Source: Candidatus Jorgensenbacteria bacterium (GTDB taxonomy: Bacteria > Patescibacteriota > Minisyncoccia > UBA6257 > GWB1-50-10). From it: 64,000 nucleotides of DNA. Each line of letters starts with the position of its first letter. Position 1 is the stretch's first letter. Positions 3,925-63,762 of the stretch are shown in pieces. The notes beneath the pieces are model-generated. The model was given only the letters and a program-made list of their open reading frames with translations. It searched no databases and was not told where the DNA came from. The stretch lies in assembly GCA_043807585.1 (NCBI GenBank), contig JAZDFV010000002.1, positions 25,581-89,580 on the forward strand, read 5' to 3'. The position numbers and the translations under genes are program-made.

Positions 3925-4125
3925 ATGCGACAGTGCGTTTTTTGTTCCCAGAACGCGAAGACCATTGATTACCGGAGCGTGGACGTGCTCCGCCGTTTTG
4001 TTTCCGGCCAGGCAAAGATCATAGATCCGCGCCACACGGGGGTCTGCGCCAAGCACCAGCGGCGTCTCGCACGCGCGGTGAAGCGCGCGCGCATCATGGG
4101 GCTACTACCCTTCGTGCGCAGATAG
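3925..4125 (+). CDS. rpsR: 30S ribosomal protein S18
   Basis: The 66-aa S18 sequence includes [13 protein letters not shown]...[11 protein letters not shown]. Confidence 0.9.
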
Positions 4126-4236
4126 CTACGAAATACGAATTTTTTACGAATTTACGAAAACGATTTATAACAGTTTCGTATATTCGTATTATTTCGTATT
4201 TCGTAGCCCTTAGGTATTTTCATATTTCGTAGCGCT
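4126..4236. repeat. TACGAA/TTCGTA word-palindrome element (second copy)
   Basis: About 100 nt are near-identical to 2620-2750 (acgaat.tacgaaaacga...tttcgtatattcgtat..tttcgtatttcgtagccctt.ggta). Confidence 0.8.
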
Positions 4237-9045: not shown

Positions 9046-9115
9046 TTTTGTGTGGTGCCCGAGGTGGGAATCCCAGCCTTCGCCTGACTACGGACGGGCA
9101 GGGAACCCACACGGT
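9046..9115 (-). other. tRNA-like 3'-end fragment abutting tRNA-Leu
   Basis: The minus-strand sequence ends ...GATTCCCACCTCGGGCACCA, which resembles the tRNA-Leu 3' end GATTCCCTCCTCGCCCA. It shares ccgtgtgggttc with the 6318-6354 fragment. Confidence 0.45.
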
Positions 9116-14655: not shown

Positions 14656-15108
14656 ATGAACAAAAAAGTCGCCGACAAGACGAACGAGATGAAGAAGGAA
14701 AAAAACGGGGTGATGCCGCTCGTCAGCGATTATTCTTCCCGGACAGAGTGGGAAACCGCTTGCTGGCGGAAGCTCCTCCAATCCAAAGAATTACTCCGAT
14801 TACTCGTTACTTCTCACGAACGTCATAACTTGGTAATGCGGGCCGCGGCTTTAGACCGACTTATTGCCGGTAAAAGCTACAAGCAAATTGGTAGAGAACT
14901 ATGGCTTTCGCCCCAAACCATCAGCGGTATCAAAAAAGCTCTAAAGGAAAAGAGCTATCAGAGCTATCAGAGCTATCAGAGCTATCTGGAGCGGAGTAAA
15001 AAAGAACGAAAAAAGAGAAAATACAGCTTCAATTCCCTCCCTGCCAAAGCAAGGTCTCGCGGCCGGCCTCACCGCACAAAGTACGGGACGATTTATCTGC
15101 CCTTCTAA
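14656..15108 (+). CDS. TrpR/YerC-YecD-like small DNA-binding protein
   Basis: An HTH region (SYKQIGRELWLSPQTISGIKKA) resembles the Trp-repressor/YerC family. It contains an SYQSYQSYQSY run encoded by a 9-nt tandem repeat. Confidence 0.6.
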   Translation: MNKKVADKTNEMKKEKNGVMPLVSDYSSRTEWETACWRKLLQSKELLRLLVTSHERHNLVMRAAALDRLIAGKSYKQIGRELWLSPQTISGIKKALKEKSYQSYQSYQSYLERSKKERKKRKYSFNSLPAKARSRGRPHRTKYGTIYLPF

Positions 15109-15110
15109 GT

Positions 15111-15128
15111 ACTATGCTATAGCATAGC
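15111..15128. promoter_or_regulatory. palindromic operator-like site (copy 3), immediately after the TrpR-like gene
   Basis: The sequence is actatgctatagcatagcgg. Confidence 0.5.
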
Positions 15129-15589
15129 GGGACAGATGAGTTTATTTATCAAGGAGGGATTTGCGGGCGAAACCGACTAAAACCGCATCCATCCTCCTTC
15201 GCTCCAACTTTTCGTCGGAGTTTCGGAAGGACAAGCAGCCGCGCCCTCCTTGCCTTCGCTCAATCCTCGGCAGGTGGGCCTGCCCGTCCGAAGCTGCAGC
15301 GGAGGAGGGTCCGCCGCAGAAATTCAGGCAATTTATAACCCCGCTCAATAGAGCCATCCCTGCCTGCCGCCCGCCCGTCGCCTGCCTGCCGGTAGGCAGG
15401 GTCGGCAGGACAGGCAGGTACAACGCAGGCCAATAATTAATCAAGGCGTACTTGTGCACCGCTCATCTTTTGGAGGATTGCCCCAAGGGTGAGGAGGATC
15501 GGTTCCGACCTCGCCTCTTGACAAGTCAAGGTTCCTCCCTATACTTATCAATTGTGATTAGCAACAAAAGGTCGTTGGTGCTAACAACC

Positions 15590-15696
15590 GATCCGAAACC
15601 ACGAATCCATCCGAATGCTCCGAATGAATCCGAATGTTTCGTAGCAATTTGTAGATTCGGATGTGTTCGTAGATTAGGATCGCGAAAGCGAAGCGC
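15590..15696. repeat. CCGAATG/CATTCGG word-palindrome upstream of groES
   Basis: ccgaatgctccgaatgaatccgaatg is followed by ttcggatg..ttcgtagattagg. Confidence 0.6.
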
Positions 15697-15990
15697 ATGT
15701 TCAAACCACTCTCAAATAAAGTATTCATAGAGGCGGCGGAGGATGAGCAGCAGAAGACCAAGTCTGGTATCGTGCTCCCCGAGACCGCCGAGAAGGAGAA
15801 ATTTGTGAAAGGTTCCGTGGTCGCGGTGGGGCCGGGTAAGATGAACGACAAAGGTGAGCGCCTACCCATGGCGGTGAAGGTTGGCGACCGCGTCCTTTTC
15901 AAGAAACCCTGGTCGGGGGATGAGCTTGAGGCGGACGGGAAGAAGCTCTTGGTGGTGGATGAGGAGGATATACTCGCGATCGTAGAATGA
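15697..15990 (+). CDS. groES: co-chaperonin GroES
   Basis: The 97-aa ORF has a GroES sequence. Confidence 0.95.
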   Translation: MFKPLSNKVFIEAAEDEQQKTKSGIVLPETAEKEKFVKGSVVAVGPGKMNDKGERLPMAVKVGDRVLFKKPWSGDELEADGKKLLVVDEEDILAIVE

Positions 15991-16000
15991 TCGCGACAAG

Positions 16001-16127
16001 CACCAAATCCCAAGCACCAAATCCCAAATAAACTCCAATCGCTGAAATCTTGGTACAATAATTGAGACGGTTTTGAATTTGGAATTTGAGATTTATTTGT
16101 AATTTGGAATTTGTGGTTTGGAATTTC
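16001..16127. repeat. CCAAAT/ATTTGG word-palindrome element (copy upstream of groEL)
   Basis: caccaaatcccaagcaccaaatcccaaat ... ttggaatttgagatttatttgtaatttggaatttgtggtttggaatttc; the same family occurs at 50641 and 56311. Confidence 0.75.
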
Positions 16128-30866: not shown

Positions 30867-31090
30867 AAGATCCCGCGCAGCGGGATAAAGAATTATGAAC
30901 AAAGAGATCATCTACTGTGAGCAGTGCTATCAAAGCGAGGTGACTTAAATAAAACGCTATGACATGTCATAGCGCCATACCATGGTTATAGCACCGAGAG
31001 AATCTAAGAAAAGTTAGGATATGACACAAGAGACCAGAACCTACCAGAACTGTCCCGCTACGCGGGATCTCGCGAAGCGAGACAAACACT

Positions 31091-37839: not shown

Positions 37840-37918
37840 GAAATATCTCCATAATATAGTGCAAGGAATGTGTGTTATTTACAGTTACTGTTTCAATTTT
37901 AGCATATATTAGAAGTAT

Positions 37919-39403
37919 ATGTCAAGTACTAAGAAAAGGGTATTCATTGCGATGTCCCCGAAGCAATCCCTTCGGGATGCTACGGGGCAGGCCGGCGGCG
38001 TGAAGCGGCCGAGGGTTTTTGTTGCGATGAGTGGGGGCGTGGATTCCTCCGTCGCGGCATTGCTGTTGAAAAAAGCCGGCTACGATTGCGTGGGCGTTTT
38101 TATGAAATGCTGGAGTGGAAACGGCCCCTCGGCATCGCTCGGGGCAAGTTGCGCGGAGCGGGATGCGGAGGATGCGCGGCGGGTCGCGGAACATATCGGC
38201 ATACCGTTCTACGTCTTTGATTTTGAGGAGGAATACAAAAAGCGGGTGGTGGAATATATGGTGGAGGGCTACCGCGCTGGTATTACGCCCAACCCTGACG
38301 TGATGTGCAACCGGGAGATAAAGTTCGGGCTGTTCTTGAAACGGGCGCTCGCGCTCGGGGCGGATTATGTGGCGACGGGGCACTACGTCCGTCTGCGGCG
38401 GAATGATGAATTTAGAATTTCTAATTTTGAATCAATTTCTAATTCCAGAATTAACAATTCAAACATTCAATCAAAATTCAAAATTGAGAATTCAAAATTT
38501 GGTCTTTTTCAGGCGAAGGACTTGAATAAAGACCAAAGTTATTTTTTATGGACATTGACCCAGAAGCAACTAAAATACTGCCTTTTCCCCATCGGTGATT
38601 ATCTGAAGTCCGAGGTGCGCGAAATTGCACGGAAGGCGGGGCTCCCCACCGCGGAGAAAAAGGACTCGCAGGGCATCTGTTTCCTGGGCGATGTCCCACT
38701 CAAGGACTTTTTGAAGCAGTATTTGCCGGAGCGGGAGGGGCCAGTGGTGCTTGCCCTGAGCGGAGCCGAAGGGACGGTGTATAAGAAAATAGGGGAGCAT
38801 GAGGGGGCGCATTTCTACACTATCGGTCAGCGCCACGGATTTTTGGTGCAAATGGCAAAGGGCTCCGATGGCAGAGCCATCGCGAGTCCACGACAAAGTC
38901 GGGACAAAGGGCAAAGCAAGGGAGAAACTAAGCCGCACTACATAGCGGCGAAGGATGTCGCAACAAATACGCTTATAGTTGCCGAAGGGAGTGATCACCC
39001 GTCGCTCTTTCAAAGAGAGGTCTCATTAACCGACATCAATTTCATCAATCCACATTCATTAGAAATTGGAAATTGTCTCGCTACGCGAGATCCCGCGAAG
39101 CGGGAGAAATTGGAAATTCCCGTGCTCGCACGGGTGCGGTACCGCCAGCCGCTCTTTGAAGCGACGCTGATTTACTCTGATGGGGAGCGGATAAATGCTG
39201 ATGGAAATCCGTATAAATCAGTTTCAAAATCCGCATCAATCCGCATAGTTTTCAAAAACCCTCAAAAATTCGTCGCTCCCGGCCAGTCCGCGGTGTTTTA
39301 TTTACCCGCCCGTAGCGGTGCGAAGGCGGGCTTGCCCGTCCGAAGCTCGGCGAAGGAGGGTCGCGAGGAGCTTGAAATGTTGGGTGGCGGAATGATTTTG
39401 TAA
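37919..39403 (+). CDS. mnmA: tRNA 2-thiouridine synthase MnmA carrying three in-frame repeat-derived insertions
   Basis: A PP-loop (SGGVDSS) is present, and the ORF is about 130 aa longer than typical MnmA. Insertions sit at 38401-38505 (AT word-palindrome), about 38870-38945, and 39073-39106 (palindromic repeat), and a repeat-derived C-terminal tail follows from about 39325. Confidence 0.85.
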   Translation: MSSTKKRVFIAMSPKQSLRDATGQAGGVKRPRVFVAMSGGVDSSVAALLLKKAGYDCVGVFMKCWSGNGPSASLGASCAERDAEDARRVAEHIGIPFYVFDFEEEYKKRVVEYMVEGYRAGITPNPDVMCNREIKFGLFLKRALALGADYVATGHYVRLRRNDEFRISNFESISNSRINNSNIQSKFKIENSKFGLFQAKDLNKDQSYFLWTLTQKQLKYCLFPIGDYLKSEVREIARKAGLPTAEKKDSQGICFLGDVPLKDFLKQYLPEREGPVVLALSGAEGTVYKKIGEHEGAHFYTIGQRHGFLVQMAKGSDGRAIASPRQSRDKGQSKGETKPHYIAAKDVATNTLIVAEGSDHPSLFQREVSLTDINFINPHSLEIGNCLATRDPAKREKLEIPVLARVRYRQPLFEATLIYSDGERINADGNPYKSVSKSASIRIVFKNPQKFVAPGQSAVFYLPARSGAKAGLPVRSSAKEGREELEMLGGGMIL

Positions 39404-39489
39404 TGGCTTCAATTTGTACGTATATGCGTACAAATTGAAGCATCGCGGTTTTGTGAGGTGCGGTGGTATAATTGCTGAAAGTCGTTAGT

Positions 39490-39600
39490 TATTGGTCGTA
39501 AGTTATTTGTTAGACGCTGATAAACGCTGATTTGCAGAACGCTGATTTACGCCGATGTTATCAGTCATAAGTTATCAGTCATAAGTTATAAGTTACTCCC
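39490..39600. repeat. CGCTGAT/ATCAG word-palindrome upstream of comEC
   Basis: acgctgat x3 is followed by atcagtcataagtt x2. Confidence 0.6.
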
Positions 39601-41076
39601 ATGCGCTCCTACGATGTTTTCTTCTTTGGGGCGCTCTTCTTTCTCCTTGGAGTGCTCCTCGCGAGCATGGGTGTGAAGGCCGGGACACTGTGGATATTCC
39701 TCGCCCTGGAGGTGGGTTGCCTCGCGGCGTGGGCGTTTTTTGAGCGCATCCCAAGCCGCTTCCGGTGGCGCATTGCGCGGAAAGGATGGCTCGCGCTAAT
39801 CGCCCTTTTATTTTTGCTCCCCGTGGGGGCGCTCTACTACACATGGGATGATAGGGACTTCCGCGCGGCGCGGTTTCCGAGCGGGGAGGTAGGGTTTTCC
39901 GGCGTCGTGGTCGGCGACCCCAAGGGGAGCGGCACGACGCAGGAGGCAGTGGTGGAACTCTCCACTCCCCACGCCGGAAAGGTTCTCGTGAAGCTCCGCT
40001 CCTTCCCGCGCGTGGCCTACGGCGACACGCTCGCGCTCACGGGCACCGTTGAACCCCCATCGCCCGCTTCTTACGCGCGCTACCTCGCCAAGGAGCGCGT
40101 GGGCTGCATCGTGGCGTTCCCTGTATTTTCCGTCGTGGCGAGCGGAAACGGCTCTCCTGTGCGGGCGTTTCTCTACGAGGTGAAGCATCGCGTCATCGGC
40201 GCGTTCCAGAGGGCGCTCCCCGTGGAAGAGGCCGCGTTCCTCGGAGGCCTCACTGTGGGTGAGCGGAGCGAGTTCAGCAGGGAGTTCAGGGATGCGATGC
40301 AGAGGAGCGGTACCACGCACCTCGTCGCGCTCTCGGGGTACAACATTTCCATCGTGGCGTGGGTGGCGATGGGGTTCTTCATCACGTTCCTCCGGAGGCG
40401 GTGGGCGTTCGCGGCGACCGTTCTCGTCATCCTCGGGTTCGTGCTCATGACGGGCGGCGAGGCCTCGGTGGTGCGGGCGGCGATCATGGGGGTGCTCCTG
40501 CTCATCGCCCGCGAGGTGGGGCGTGTCTACAGCATCCGTAACGCGGTTCTCTTCGCGGCGCTCGCGATGGTGCTCGTGAACCCCAAGGTGCTCGCGTTCG
40601 ACGTGGGGTTCCAGCTCTCATTCCTCGCTTTCCTCGGCATCGCGTACCTGCGGCCCGCCATCGTTTCACTGCTGAGGTTCCCCGAGGAGCCGGGGTTCCT
40701 CTCGTGGCGCGACAACCTCACGGCTACCGCCTCGGCCCAGCTCGCCGTGGTGCCGCTTCTCATCTCCTCCTTTGGCGGGTTCTCGGTGTTTTCCCTCGTC
40801 GCGAACGTCATTGTCCTGGAGCTCGTCCCGGTCACCATGGGGCTTGGGTTCCTCATGGCGTTCCTCACGGCGGCGGGGGAGTACGCCGCACTCGCCTTCG
40901 GGTGGCTCACCTGGGTGCTTTTGCGGTTCGAGGTTGCGGTGATAAAGTTCTTCGGGGTGCTCTACATTCCGCTCGCGCCGGAACTGAACTGGTTCCTCAT
41001 CACTTTCTACTACGCGGCCCTTGTGGGTTTCATCATCTATGTTCGAAGGCATACGCTCGCTCGTCGCACGGCATAA
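39601..41076 (+). CDS. comEC: ComEC/Rec2 competence channel, membrane domain portion
   Basis: It is a polytopic ComEC-like sequence. Confidence 0.8.
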   Translation: MRSYDVFFFGALFFLLGVLLASMGVKAGTLWIFLALEVGCLAAWAFFERIPSRFRWRIARKGWLALIALLFLLPVGALYYTWDDRDFRAARFPSGEVGFSGVVVGDPKGSGTTQEAVVELSTPHAGKVLVKLRSFPRVAYGDTLALTGTVEPPSPASYARYLAKERVGCIVAFPVFSVVASGNGSPVRAFLYEVKHRVIGAFQRALPVEEAAFLGGLTVGERSEFSREFRDAMQRSGTTHLVALSGYNISIVAWVAMGFFITFLRRRWAFAATVLVILGFVLMTGGEASVVRAAIMGVLLLIAREVGRVYSIRNAVLFAALAMVLVNPKVLAFDVGFQLSFLAFLGIAYLRPAIVSLLRFPEEPGFLSWRDNLTATASAQLAVVPLLISSFGGFSVFSLVANVIVLELVPVTMGLGFLMAFLTAAGEYAALAFGWLTWVLLRFEVAVIKFFGVLYIPLAPELNWFLITFYYAALVGFIIYVRRHTLARRTA

Positions 41077-56310: not shown

Positions 56311-56462
56311 AAAATTGAAATTTGAGTCCAACCCATAAAAATTCCAAATGACAAATTCCAAATCTCAAATAATATCCAATAGCCTAAATTCCAAACTTTT
56401 CGGAGGTTGGTATTTGAGATTTGGTATTTATTTGTTATTTGGTGCTTGGAATTTGAGATTTC
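56311..56462. repeat. CCAAAT/ATTTGG word-palindrome element (copy upstream of rplD)
   Basis: aaattccaaatgacaaattccaaatctcaaat ... ggtatttgagatttggtatttatttgttatttggtgcttggaatttgagatttc. Confidence 0.75.
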
Positions 56463-56469
56463 TAAACTT

Positions 56470-57093
56470 ATGATCGTTGATGTTTTCAATCAAGAGAATA
56501 AAAAGGTGGGCACCGTGGAGCTCCCAAACACTGTGTTTGGCGTGAAGTGGAATCCGACGCTGGTTCAGCAAGTGACGGTCTCCCAGCTTGCGAACCGACG
56601 GAAGCCTATGGCGCACACGAAAACGCGCGGCGAGGTCCGCGGCGGCGGCAAGAAACCCTGGCGCCAGAAGCATACGGGGCGGGCCCGCCACGGTTCCACG
56701 CGTTCGCCGCTCTGGGCAGGCGGCGGCGTGACATTTGGTCCACGCAAGGACCGCATATTTGAAAAGCGTATCCCCATCGCTATGCGGCGCGCGGCGCTCC
56801 ACGCGGTGCTCTCCAAAAAACTTGCCGAAGATGAGGTGAGGGTCGTGGATACCTTCACGCTCACCGCGCCCAAGACCAAGCACGTGGCGGCGCTCGTGAG
56901 GTCCTTTTTCGGAAAACCTGCGAGCGTTCTTTTTGTGCCCGGGAAAGGCGAAGGAGATTTTTTCCGTGCGGGGCGTAACCTCCCCAAAACCAAAATTCTG
57001 CATGCTCGCTCCTTGAACGTGTATGATTGCCTTTCCCATCACTACCTGTTACTGGAACGGAACGCCATTGGCGAGCTCCGGGGCGCGAAGTAA
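56470..57093 (+). CDS. rplD: 50S ribosomal protein L4
   Basis: The L4 sequence is present. Confidence 0.9.
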   Translation: MIVDVFNQENKKVGTVELPNTVFGVKWNPTLVQQVTVSQLANRRKPMAHTKTRGEVRGGGKKPWRQKHTGRARHGSTRSPLWAGGGVTFGPRKDRIFEKRIPIAMRRAALHAVLSKKLAEDEVRVVDTFTLTAPKTKHVAALVRSFFGKPASVLFVPGKGEGDFFRAGRNLPKTKILHARSLNVYDCLSHHYLLLERNAIGELRGAK

Positions 57094-57687: not shown

Positions 57688-57790
57688 CCCAGCACATAAA
57701 AGTATGAAAACATCAACCAATCTTAAAGTAATTACTTCTCGATTGAACGATTTGTACCAAGAAAGTCGCTTGGTTACTTTTATGTGCTGG
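57688..57790. repeat. CAGCACATAAA-TIR element R1 (about 103 nt, TIR cccagcacataaaagta / tacttttatgtgctggg)
   Basis: There are six copies in the r-protein operon spacers (57688, 59087, 60742, 61355, 62013 and 63592). R1, R2 and R4 are near-identical. Confidence 0.85.
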
Positions 57791-59086: not shown

Positions 59087-59190
59087 CCCAGCACATAAAA
59101 GTATGAAAACATCAACCAATCTTAAAGTAATTACTTCTCGATTGAACGATTTGTACCAAGAAAGTCGCTTGGTTACTTTTATGTGCCGGG
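59087..59190. repeat. CAGCACATAAA-TIR element R2
   Basis: It is near-identical to R1. Its right flank, gtggacattcggctgagctcagtcgaagccctcg, is shared with R6 and, in inverse orientation, with the R1 left flank. Confidence 0.85.
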
Positions 59191-60741: not shown

Positions 60742-60845
60742 CCCAGCACATAAAAGTATGAAAATATCAACTGATTTTAAATTAATTATTTCTGTGTCAA
60801 ATGGCTTGTACCAAGAAGGTCGCTTGGTTACTTTTACGTGCTGGG
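60742..60845. repeat. CAGCACATAAA-TIR element R3
   Basis: It is a family copy with a diverged interior. Confidence 0.8.
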
Positions 60846-61354: not shown

Positions 61355-61458
61355 CCCAGCACATAAAAGTATGAAAACATCAACCAATCTTAAAGCAATT
61401 ACTTCTCGATTGAACGATTTGTACCAAGGAGGTCGCTTGGTTACTTCTATGTGCTGGG
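61355..61458. repeat. CAGCACATAAA-TIR element R4
   Basis: It is near-identical to R1 and R2. Confidence 0.85.
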
Positions 61459-61991: not shown

Positions 61992-62012
61992 TTTTTGGCT
62001 ACCAAACAACAA

Positions 62013-62116
62013 CCCTGCACATAAATTTATGAACACGGTTTTCAACCAAAAAATGAATAAGATATCGGTCAATCGCTCTGGTTATCGAAAGCGTACGGTT
62101 AAATTTATGTGCGGGG
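62013..62116. repeat. CAGCACATAAA-TIR element R5 (diverged: ccctgcacataaatttatg ... aaatttatgtgcgggg)
   Basis: The TIRs are related and the interior differs. Confidence 0.7.
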
Positions 62117-62186
62117 TGCTCATTGTGGTAGCTGAATATTCTTCGCTACGCAGTGAGCTTCGCTTGAATATTCAGACCACAATGGC

Positions 62187-62559: not shown

Positions 62560-62700
62560 CAAAACTATAAATTCATGCGAATCTACAAATATGATACGAA
62601 TATATCCGCATAAATCCGTTTCAATCCGCATAAATCCGTGTTTAGTAAATCAGCGTAAATCAGCGTCCAATAAATCAGCATCAATCCGCGTGTTTAGTAA
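62560..62700. repeat. direct-repeat word array upstream of rplX (ccgcataaatccg x2, aaatcagcgt x2, gtgtttagtaaa x2)
   Basis: Direct repeats of several words are present rather than an inverted arrangement. Confidence 0.6.
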
Positions 62701-63548: not shown

Positions 63549-63591
63549 CGAAGTCAAGGCGGGCGGGTAGGATTTTTCAACACCAAACCTT

Positions 63592-63676
63592 CACCGAGCA
63601 CATAAAGCATTATGTTATGAATATGAAGAACAAACACCACGAGGTTGCGCAACCAAGTTCCTTTATGTGCTCGGTG
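63592..63676. repeat. CAGCACATAAA-TIR element R6 (diverged)
   Basis: caccgagcacataaagcat ... ctttatgtgctcggtg is followed by the shared flank gacattcggctgagctcagtcgaagccctcg. Confidence 0.7.
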
Positions 63677-63762
63677 GACATTCGGCTGAGCTCAGTCGAA
63701 GCCCTCGATTCCGTAGATAAATTTTCATCGTCCGCTAACTCGAAAATTTATACATAATCGGC

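Follow-up and report, generated by a model that had tools for sequence, protein, structure and literature searches.

A Jorgensenbacteria MnmA whose surface loops were probably extended by short repeat DNA inserted in frame

The mnmA gene and its additional segments

The window analyzed here is a 64-kb stretch of DNA from an uncultured groundwater bacterium, Candidatus Jorgensenbacteria, that belongs to the candidate phyla radiation (CPR; Patescibacteria). On its forward strand, at positions 37919 to 39403, lies an open reading frame (ORF) of 494 codons that is open throughout, with no stop and no frameshift, and that, judged from its sequence, is an intact mnmA gene for the tRNA 2-thiouridine(34) synthase MnmA. 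The product, at 494 amino acids (aa), is about 120 residues longer than characterized MnmA proteins, the solved chains of which have 364 to 380 aa. In our view the gene is probably functional, and its surface loops probably owe their additional length to short repeat DNA of several families that was inserted in frame.

Pfam placed a HUP domain (PF03054) at aa 32 to 257, a PRC barrel (PF20259) at aa 262 to 355 and the C-terminal barrel (PF20258) at aa 435 to 461. The protein scored 370.5 bits against the NCBIfam equivalog NF001138 (cut-off, 284), in a match split into two stretches, and 331.9 bits against TIGR00420 (cut-off, 236.95). The best PDB matches, 9hlv, 2hma and 2der (the MnmA proteins of Bacillus subtilis, Streptococcus pneumoniae and Escherichia coli), likewise aligned in two separate parts, the gaps falling in the PDB sequences. 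When the query was aligned with 119 homologues of 366 to 521 aa (median, 411), it was the second longest of the 120 sequences, and it retained every invariant column, including the PP-loop (S38-G-G-V-D-S43) and D127, C130 and C254, which correspond to the catalytic residues D99, C102 and C199 of E. coli MnmA (PMC11784392). An AlphaFold2 (AF2) model had a predicted local distance difference test score (pLDDT) of 80.5 and a predicted template-modeling score (pTM) of 0.83, with pLDDT values of at least 90 at 291 residues, and Foldseek matched it to 2hma, 2det, 2deu and 2der at template-modeling (TM) scores of 0.87 to 0.88, normalized to the target. The reaction that defines MnmA is the formation of s2U34 on tRNA-Lys, tRNA-Glu and tRNA-Gln, and we infer that the 494-aa enzyme is active. 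The initial annotation of this DNA had named frameshifts as the sign of a pseudogene, none of which occurs in the ORF; it had also called the enzyme essential, which was too strong, since E. coli can dispense with MnmA (PMC11784392). The identical protein at NCBI is the MnmA of a Candidatus Jorgensenbacteria metagenome-assembled genome (MAG), and the next relative is only 65% identical. The GC content of the gene is about 0.57.

Eight segments of the query exceeded the common homologue length in the 120-sequence alignment. In front of the first strand the query carries 36 residues, where the homologue modes are 0 and 13. The loops designated Ha (aa 64 to 80), Hb (aa 274 to 292) and H5 (aa 461 to 488) hold 15, 17 and 26 residues against common lengths of 7, 10 and 6, these basal lengths being the modes among homologues. 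H3 (aa 374 to 405) and H4 (aa 412 to 445) hold 30 and 32 residues against common lengths of about 20 and 15, and H1 (aa 156 to 201) and H2 (aa 306 to 339) hold 44 and 32 residues against homologue minima of 11 and 7. The initial annotation had counted four repeat insertions; those insertions are real, but the number is about eight, the N-terminal, Ha, Hb and H4 segments having been overlooked. Its expectation that structures would place the insertions in loops held: gaps were seen against the PDB chains, and the pLDDT fell below 70 at aa 1 to 30, 66 to 78, 161 to 190, 301 to 335, 381 to 398, 421 to 440 and 461 to 482, between core strands, with H1, Hb, H4 and H5 at the tips of beta-hairpins in the AF2 model.

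Because the basal loop lengths are common among homologues and in solved structures, and because the long versions are scattered on the tree, the reading of the extra segments as lineage-variable insertions rather than ancestral domains is supported. The core tree was built by neighbor joining from 338 core columns with no bootstrap and is therefore indicative only; on it, the ratio of observed to random parsimony changes for the long versions was 0.83 to 1.0, compared to 0.74 for ordinary variable columns, and frequent gain and loss of inserts is thereby indicated. A comparison of presence and absence across relatives, as proposed initially, gave a patchy distribution with variable hot spots among the homologues, but there was no relative above 65% identity for a finer comparison.

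The inserts are probably translated. At the H1 loop, which we call hot spot 1 and which lies between the TGHY and KDQSYFL motifs, both anchors were found in 114 loci, and in all 114 they shared a reading frame uninterrupted by stops. Nine other loci comprised five with variant motifs (open), two with in-frame deletions (L081 and L089; open; relatives are given by the L or P numbers of their loci), one that was masked with N and one that was uninformative. Insertion 1, the query insert at this site, is open in only two of the six frames. Since removal at the RNA level would not impose open frames, the inserts would be transcribed and translated as part of the protein. An intron or intein was considered and rejected, every insert being in frame, stop-free wherever readable and far too short. 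Programmed translational bypass of the T4 gene 60 type was likewise rejected for the palindrome of insertion 3 (in H3), because the 14-nucleotide (nt) repeats around it are 44 nt apart, a spacing that is not a multiple of 3 and that would destroy the continuous, homologous frame.

We regard a pseudogene or an assembly artefact as highly improbable. The source is a single MAG assembly, insertion 3 and the exact sequence of insertion 1 are unique to it, and in L081 and L089 in-frame deletions start right after the AT-rich insert of hot spot 1 and remove the KDQSYFLW motif, which may reflect palindrome-associated deletion or misassembly. Against these points, the frame is open over all 494 codons with no invariant residue lost, the N-terminal, H4 and H5 inserts are present in independent assemblies (L122, L001, L042 and L043), and inserts of a similar kind are present in over 100 loci that come from many studies.

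Repeat origin of the inserts

For each insert, the best local alignment elsewhere in the window, with mnmA masked, was compared with those of 60 dinucleotide shuffles. The H3 palindrome scored 56 (shuffles, 24.7 ± 1.7), H5 scored 52 (26.6 ± 2.2) and H4 scored 47 (25.3 ± 2.6), and in each case 0/60 shuffles reached the score. The results were marginal for Hb (score, 30; shuffles, 23.8 ± 2.0; 0/60) and for the N-terminal insert (31; 25.5; 1/60), and they were not significant for H1 (32; 28.4; 4/60), for Ha and H2 or for four control pieces of mnmA. Because significant copies exist elsewhere in the window, a repeat origin for the H3 palindrome and for the H4 and H5 inserts is shown.

Insertion 3, in H3, occupies 33 nt (39074 to 39106) and encodes 11 codons, CLATRDPAKRE. 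It forms two hairpins (39076 to 39090 and 39091 to 39105), both of the form TCYCGC-NNN-GCGRGA, and was correctly recognized as a palindrome in the initial annotation. Its partner lies in intergenic DNA at 31051 to 31085, just 5' of an ATG, and matches it over 33 nt at 94%; the shared double hairpin is GTCYCGC-TAC-GCGRGAT-CYCGC-GAA-GCGRGAC. Perfect TCYCGC-NNN-GCGRGA hairpins occur 6 times in the window versus 1.3 expected. The H4 insert, INADGNPYKSVSKS (DGERINADGNPYKSVSKS; 39179 to 39232), lies within a word palindrome at 39167 to 39244, the right arm of which matches an intergenic decamer array, ATCCGCATAA-ATCCGTTTCA-ATCCGCATAA, at 62604 to 62638.

H5 is made of two GC-rich 30-nt units at 39302 to 39361, encoding LPARSGAKAG and LPVRSSAKEG, between the strand at aa 457 to 463 and the final strand at aa 485 to 493. 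What had been taken for a repeat-derived C-terminal tail is in fact this internal 60-nt insertion (2 × 30), since after H5 (LPARSGAKAGLPVRSSAKEG) the protein resumes with REELEMLGGGMIL, the conserved final MnmA strand (ELEMLGGGMIL). A two-unit copy is present at 15272 to 15311 (35/40), and a single unit is found on the reverse strand at 9077 to 9100, between tRNA-Leu and the next gene. The GC-rich unit CCCGYCCGWAG-N4-GCGAAGG has 3 matches in the window versus 0.04 expected. The 14-mer GCCCGTCCGAAGCT was rejected as a repeat in its own right: it has two exact copies only, and with 3 mismatches 9 were found versus 9.0 expected, so that only the longer CCCGYCCGWAG unit was significant. In the sister genome L001, the GC-rich H5 unit sits in frame, in opposite orientation, inside an insertion of about 28 residues in trmD (L001:5985-6746), a gene whose identity was confirmed by NCBIfam and PDB alignment. 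Repeat families are thus found both between genes and in frame within them, the double hairpin at 31051 and in mnmA, and the GC-rich unit at 9077, in mnmA and in L001 trmD. The region around the two-unit copy (15140 to 15560) is GC-rich, with no credible ORF and no Rfam match, and contains further CCTGCC/GGCAGG hairpins.

Insertion 1 (38405 to 38500; 32 codons; GC content, 0.20) is placed at the tip of the beta-hairpin 157-161/194-198. Its arms (38409 to 38432 and 38476 to 38499) are inverted arrays of degenerate heptamers with 83% complementarity, and among all inverted repeats of the window it ranks fourth in length. The initial annotation had likened this AT-rich segment to the intergenic elements; the insertion and the shared style are real, but it is a copy of none of them. 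Its repeat origin has indirect support from the repeats that relatives carry at this loop. Hot spot 1 of the closest orthologue (L001/L042/L043) holds an 87-nt palindrome, GCTACGAAATACGAA...TTCGTATTTCGTAGC, that aligns end to end with the window's intergenic palindromes at 2597 to 2735 and 4122 to 4207 (36 nt at 97%; E = 3e-12). These two, with 53031 to 53141, make up an AT-rich family of TACGAA/TTCGTA words.

Hot spot 1 has its basal 15 residues in 23 loci and reaches up to 63 elsewhere; most of 112 loci exceed the basal length, with many unrelated insert families. The family of insertion 1, RRNDEF..SNFE..NSKFKI.NSKF, recurs there in L022, L044, L053 and others. The inserts from 47 distinct orthologues had a mean fold z score of -3.59, with 66% below -2, compared to a mean of -0.33, with 2% below -2, for adjacent coding DNA of equal length (Wilcoxon P = 2e-10). 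A further element, named for its peptide QGVSGATPKSY, occupies hot spot 1 in five lineages (L008:3436-3537, L015, L018, L056 and L063) and hot spot 3 in L058 (L058:2491-2592) and P0118. It has an invariant 38-nt core, CAGRGTGTCTCCGGGGCGACGCCCAAGTCTTACYCTTC, with variable outer stems and compensatory changes at 11/25 pairs; it gave no Rfam match, and its core was absent from the window and from viral contigs. These comparisons show that related Parcubacteria have been hit repeatedly at the same loops, which act as hot spots with high turnover. The tolerance of inserts, which the initial annotation had thought unusual, is common in the clade, the homologues ranging up to 521 aa.

The remaining segments are shorter or lack clear relatives in the window. 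Ha (38126 to 38149) adds 8 residues, PSASLGAS, between the strand at aa 56 to 63 and the helix at aa 78 to 93, and a long version is present in 38/120 homologues. Hb (38753 to 38773) adds 7 residues, ALSGAEG, at a beta-hairpin tip; its DNA, CCCTGAGCGGAGCCGAAGGG, has a marginal copy at 51015 to 51042. Insertion 2, in H2, adds about 25 residues. It had been placed initially at 38870 to 38945; the insertion is real but runs from about 38849 to 38925 and contains a 13-bp hairpin (38860 to 38889) that had gone unnoted. The inserts of the gene span 21 to 105 nt. Stable hairpins were predicted for the N-terminal insert (fold z score, -2.85), insertion 2 (-3.47) and insertion 3 (-2.08), and the folds of insertion 1, H4, H5, Ha and Hb were not better than those of shuffles. 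Across orthologues, H2, H4 and H5 showed no hairpin excess.

A local origin, by replication slippage, tandem duplication or hairpin-templated repair of low-complexity DNA in place, was weighed against arrival from elsewhere. Direct repeats flank four inserts: the N-terminal insert (18 nt, 15/18), Hb (13 nt, 11/13), insertion 2 (12 nt, 11/12; 38849 to 38860 and 38905 to 38916) and insertion 3 (14 nt, 14/14; 39061 to 39074 and 39105 to 39118), with spacings of 75, 34, 56 and 44 nt, respectively, that are mostly not multiples of three. Such repeats favor local events, as do the two tandem units of H5 and the plain tandem heptamers at hot spot 1 in L019, L044, L057 and L071, (TTTTCAA)n, (AAATTCA)n and (TTTCCAA)n. 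However, direct-repeat pairs were not convincingly enriched (1.35 per kb in mnmA versus 0.61 per kb in the window); copies at unrelated loci exist for the palindrome, for H4 and for H5 with both of its units; the L001 insert matches intergenic palindromes of another species end to end; and one element family occupies two different MnmA loops in different lineages. We therefore consider a local origin unlikely as the general explanation.

Several observations nonetheless weigh against insertion of dispersed repeats. Neither insertion 1, insertion 2 nor Ha has a significant second copy in the 64-kb window, as a local origin would predict, and the fold energy of insertion 1 is not better than that of shuffles (z = -0.6 to -1.3). 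The tandem-heptamer AT-rich inserts of relatives could grow in place. A Pfam scan of ten other ORFs of the window revealed no transposase, and the inserts showed no target-site duplications of the classical short kind. Scans of genomes and metagenome contigs yielded no relative above 65% identity and hence no empty-site allele. Finally, the nucleotide conservation above the synonymous level and the covariation described below do not fit purely neutral passengers.

Insertion of repeats remains the account that we favor. The families concerned comprise hairpins rich in GC, an element made of two GC-rich units, and 7- or 10-nt words in inverted arrays, and they are found in the intergenic DNA of the genome as well. 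Dispersed repeats would insert or recombine into the gene, and selection would then leave the survivors that are in frame and located in loops; inserts would thus persist where the protein tolerates them, namely at the N-terminus and at beta-hairpin tips, and where they happen to be open in the frame of the gene. Local slippage probably contributes to the word arrays. We infer arrival by mobile or recombining repeats rather than by local expansion, with most inserts being presumably neutral passengers. In the ten scanned ORFs (ParB, ThyX, DnaG, sigma-70, a class II aminoacyl-tRNA synthetase and others), no split alignments comparable to that of MnmA were seen.

Constraint on the N-terminal hairpin

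The N-terminal insert, SPKQSLRDATGQAGGVKRP (37955 to 38011), contains a hairpin at 37953 to 37989 closed by CCCCG/CGGGG. In front of the insert stands a decoy version of the sequence that codes for the beta-1 strand (R-V-F-I-A-M; 37937 to 37954), which is a direct repeat of 38012 to 38029 (15/18; spacing, 75 nt). The protein accordingly begins K-K-R-V-F-I-A-M-S, followed by the insert, then G-G-V-K-R-P and the real R-V-F-V-A-M-S-G-G-V-D-S-S, so that a decoy first strand is split by the hairpin at S|GG and an intact copy follows. The same layout recurs in L122, L025 and L080 and in the loci of P0020, P0090, P0111 and P0086; in the last of these (L126:601-820), the N-terminal unit (VFVxMS, hairpin and GQGSG) stands twice in tandem before the real PP-loop strand. 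In a separate set of relatives (L036, L049, L092, L116 and P0004), the mnmA frame runs upstream into about 60 conserved residues (..IPGTFNAGATLGPVNETNMARIWNKHK..), which suggests fusion with, or read-through from, the preceding gene.

The hairpin occupies the same position in at least eight MnmA lineages, is carried by about 10% of MnmA genes and shows compensatory changes. Its closing stem, CCCCG/CGGGG, and the CAGGCNGGCGG that follows are conserved, and the helices further in vary with compensating changes. When six sequences were aligned, pairing was seen in 93.3% of cells, compared to 79.6% in shuffles and 29 to 48% in slid controls, and double changes were found at 7/15 pairs versus 2.4 in shuffles (0/500). 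The apical loop is UUC in four lineages. Over the insert and its flanks (80 nt; 37955 to 38034), L122 is 95% identical in DNA, whereas its protein is only 55% identical. For this hairpin, it is apparently base pairing that is conserved rather than the peptide.

A similar signal was seen around H4. Between the query and L001, an 87-nt stretch across H4 (39170 to 39256) is 90% identical, and the third codon positions of identical residues match at 21/23 sites in the block that holds H4 (aa 418 to 447), compared to 189/314 gene-wide and 7/17 in a neighboring conserved strand.

We therefore considered the possibility that the hairpins are functional nucleic-acid elements, regulating mnmA translation or mRNA stability in cis or serving the mobility of the element, with the peptide as a by-product. 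The pairing and compensatory changes of the N-terminal hairpin, its conservation in L122, the third positions at H4 (21/23 versus 60% gene-wide) and the invariant core and 11/25 compensatory pairs of the QGVSGATPKSY element all speak for this. Yet no Rfam match was found, the covariation comes from only six sequences per alignment and could stem from replacement by different family members, and no hairpin excess was seen for H2, H4 and H5 across orthologues. As an explanation of the inserts at large, we judge this possible though on balance unlikely. More narrowly, constraint on nucleic-acid structure appears to act at least on the N-terminal hairpin and, in relatives, on one family of elements. 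The hairpins would then be needed for spread of the element or for a cis function, as purely decaying junk does not fit. A speculative proposal, which we hold to be rather doubtful, is that CPR bacteria carry families of structure-constrained hairpins that repeatedly build loop peptides in housekeeping enzymes (mnmA and trmD), at least the N-terminal one being a conserved cis-acting RNA or DNA structure within the ORF. On this proposal, the N-terminal hairpin could be an operator that tunes mnmA translation, for example by mimicking the substrate anticodon arm through its UUC loop, or it could sense the decoding of adjacent Lys, Gln and Glu codons.

Adaptive protein extensions, in which basic, Ser/Lys-rich loops would provide new contacts, for instance to the tRNA or a sulfur donor, are improbable. 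The initial annotation had reasoned that insert peptides conserved across distant lineages would point to ancestral domains; SPKQSLRD..GQAGG, LP..SAKEG and LALSGVEG do recur across lineages, as does WSGNGPDASVGVNC, and many insert peptides are Lys/Arg-rich, but their presence on the tree is patchy. Moreover, sequence and length are hypervariable at each loop, the pLDDT is low, and the N-terminal hairpin conserves pairing and not residues. Searches with the peptides gave no further relatives: a 41-aa composite of insert peptides had no candidate in a word index of a protein collection, and an exhaustive HMMER search with the 43-aa region of insertion 1 had no match at E ≤ 0.001, both being short, low-complexity queries and hence uninformative. 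At the Rfam gathering threshold, only one tRNA was detected in the window, and hits in mnmA, in 15000 to 15700 and in the L008 element were at chance level.

Surrounding DNA and comparison with known systems

The neighbors of mnmA are murC and a ComEC-like gene. Upstream, a promoter-like TTTACA-16-TAGCAT (37878 to 37905) ends 13 nt before the ATG at 37919, with no Shine-Dalgarno sequence between, and the transcript may have almost no leader. Besides this ATG, an ATG at 37952 and a GTG at 37999 are candidate start codons. A perfect 18+18-nt palindrome (39406 to 39441) follows the stop codon immediately on the forward strand and probably forms a terminator hairpin; in L001 the palindrome at this position is another one. 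Farther downstream (39480 to 39595), word arrays of CGCTGAT (period, about 12 nt) and then of AGTCATAAGTTATC (period, 14 nt) extend as far as position 39601, where the ComEC-like gene starts. Elsewhere in the window, arrays of GGAATTT-like heptamers (16003 to 16121, 50647 to 50781 and 56311 to 56480) stand directly 5' of groEL (16118), an EF-G-like gene (50779) and ORF 56407, and they are mirrored by complementary arrays for divergent neighboring ORFs, so that the intergenic regions resemble long word palindromes. A nearly identical repeat of about 58 nt (CAGCACATAAAAGTATGAAAACATCAAC...) is found at 57690 to 57747, 59089 to 59146, 60744 to 60818 and 61357 to 61407 (4 copies versus 0 expected) as part of palindromes of about 106 nt (also at 62012 to 62117 and 63583 to 63685), between consecutive ORFs that, judged by translation only, resemble ribosomal-protein genes.

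Proteins of CPR bacteria carry unexplained extra segments. In the present case a source of such segments can be read from the DNA, namely, repeats of intergenic type that would have landed in the loops of a conserved enzyme, and the inserts provide a natural map of insertion-tolerant sites in MnmA. For annotators, low-complexity peptides in CPR proteins may be repeat derived. Covarying hairpins within coding sequence also raise the question of whether selection acts on nucleic-acid structure rather than on the peptide. No earlier description of in-frame repeat inserts in CPR/Patescibacteria was found in the literature, coverage of which was incomplete and is not proof of absence; in-frame repeat insertion of this kind is apparently undescribed in this bacterial group.

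Intragenic stem-loop arrays of the tandem interspaced guide RNA (TIGR) type have been reported from CPR bacteria (bioRxiv 10.64898/2026.09.09.750476). They share with the present inserts hairpin units inside coding sequence, a kept frame, disordered loops and occurrence in CPR genomes; in contrast, the host gene here is mnmA, and no Nop domain was present in the ORFs scanned. TIGR arrays are marked by box C (RUGAUGA) and box D (CUGA) on either side of two spacers, beside a tas gene with a Nop domain. A TIGR array was rejected as a reading of insertion 1, which has ATGATGA at 38403 but no CTGA (box D), and no tas gene adjoins mnmA, the neighbors being murC and the ComEC-like gene. Repetitive extragenic palindromic (REP) elements, which are palindromes tagged with GTAG/CGTC and extragenic by definition (PMC3733652), resemble the 15-nt GC-rich TCYCGC-NNN-GCGRGA hairpins, which occur singly or paired and, in size and arrangement, are like the doublets of bacterial interspersed mosaic elements; the hairpins here, however, are also found within mnmA. 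[quoted passage not shown] The inserts in mnmA have inverted arms, but terminal inverted repeats accompanied by a target duplication of short, fixed length were not seen. The flanking direct repeats measure 12 to 18 nt, and no parent insertion sequence was identified among the ten window ORFs scanned.

The Rickettsia palindromic elements (RPEs; Ogata et al. 2000, 2002, summarized in PMC10969869) are repeats with a palindromic sequence that lie in intergenic DNA as well as, in frame, within various unrelated housekeeping genes. They measure about 100 to 150 bp, fall into several families and are translated into a conserved peptide of 35 to 50 aa that is compatible with the fold (PMC10969869). 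The likeness comprises intergenic and in-frame genic copies, extra translated segments, several families and a host-dependent host with a reduced genome. Members of one family were found here both in intergenic DNA and in unrelated genes (the double hairpin, the GC-rich unit and the ACGAA palindrome). Stable hairpins were predicted in the N-terminal insert and insertions 2 and 3, and on average in hot spot 1 of the 47 orthologues, but not in insertion 1, H4, H5, Ha or Hb. The inserts differ from RPEs in their length (21 to 105 nt) and in having peptides that are not conserved at most loops; some are arrays of 7- or 10-nt words with no unique consensus. They differ also in occurring in Patescibacteria/CPR, in a load per gene that is much higher, with up to eight shorter elements in one gene, and in the reuse of the same loops across lineages. 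Membership in the RPE families is not claimed, because length and peptide conservation do not match; the likeness is one of features. As an analogy, however, the RPE parallel drawn in the initial annotation is apt, and RPEs are the closest parallel to the in-frame inserts of this mnmA.

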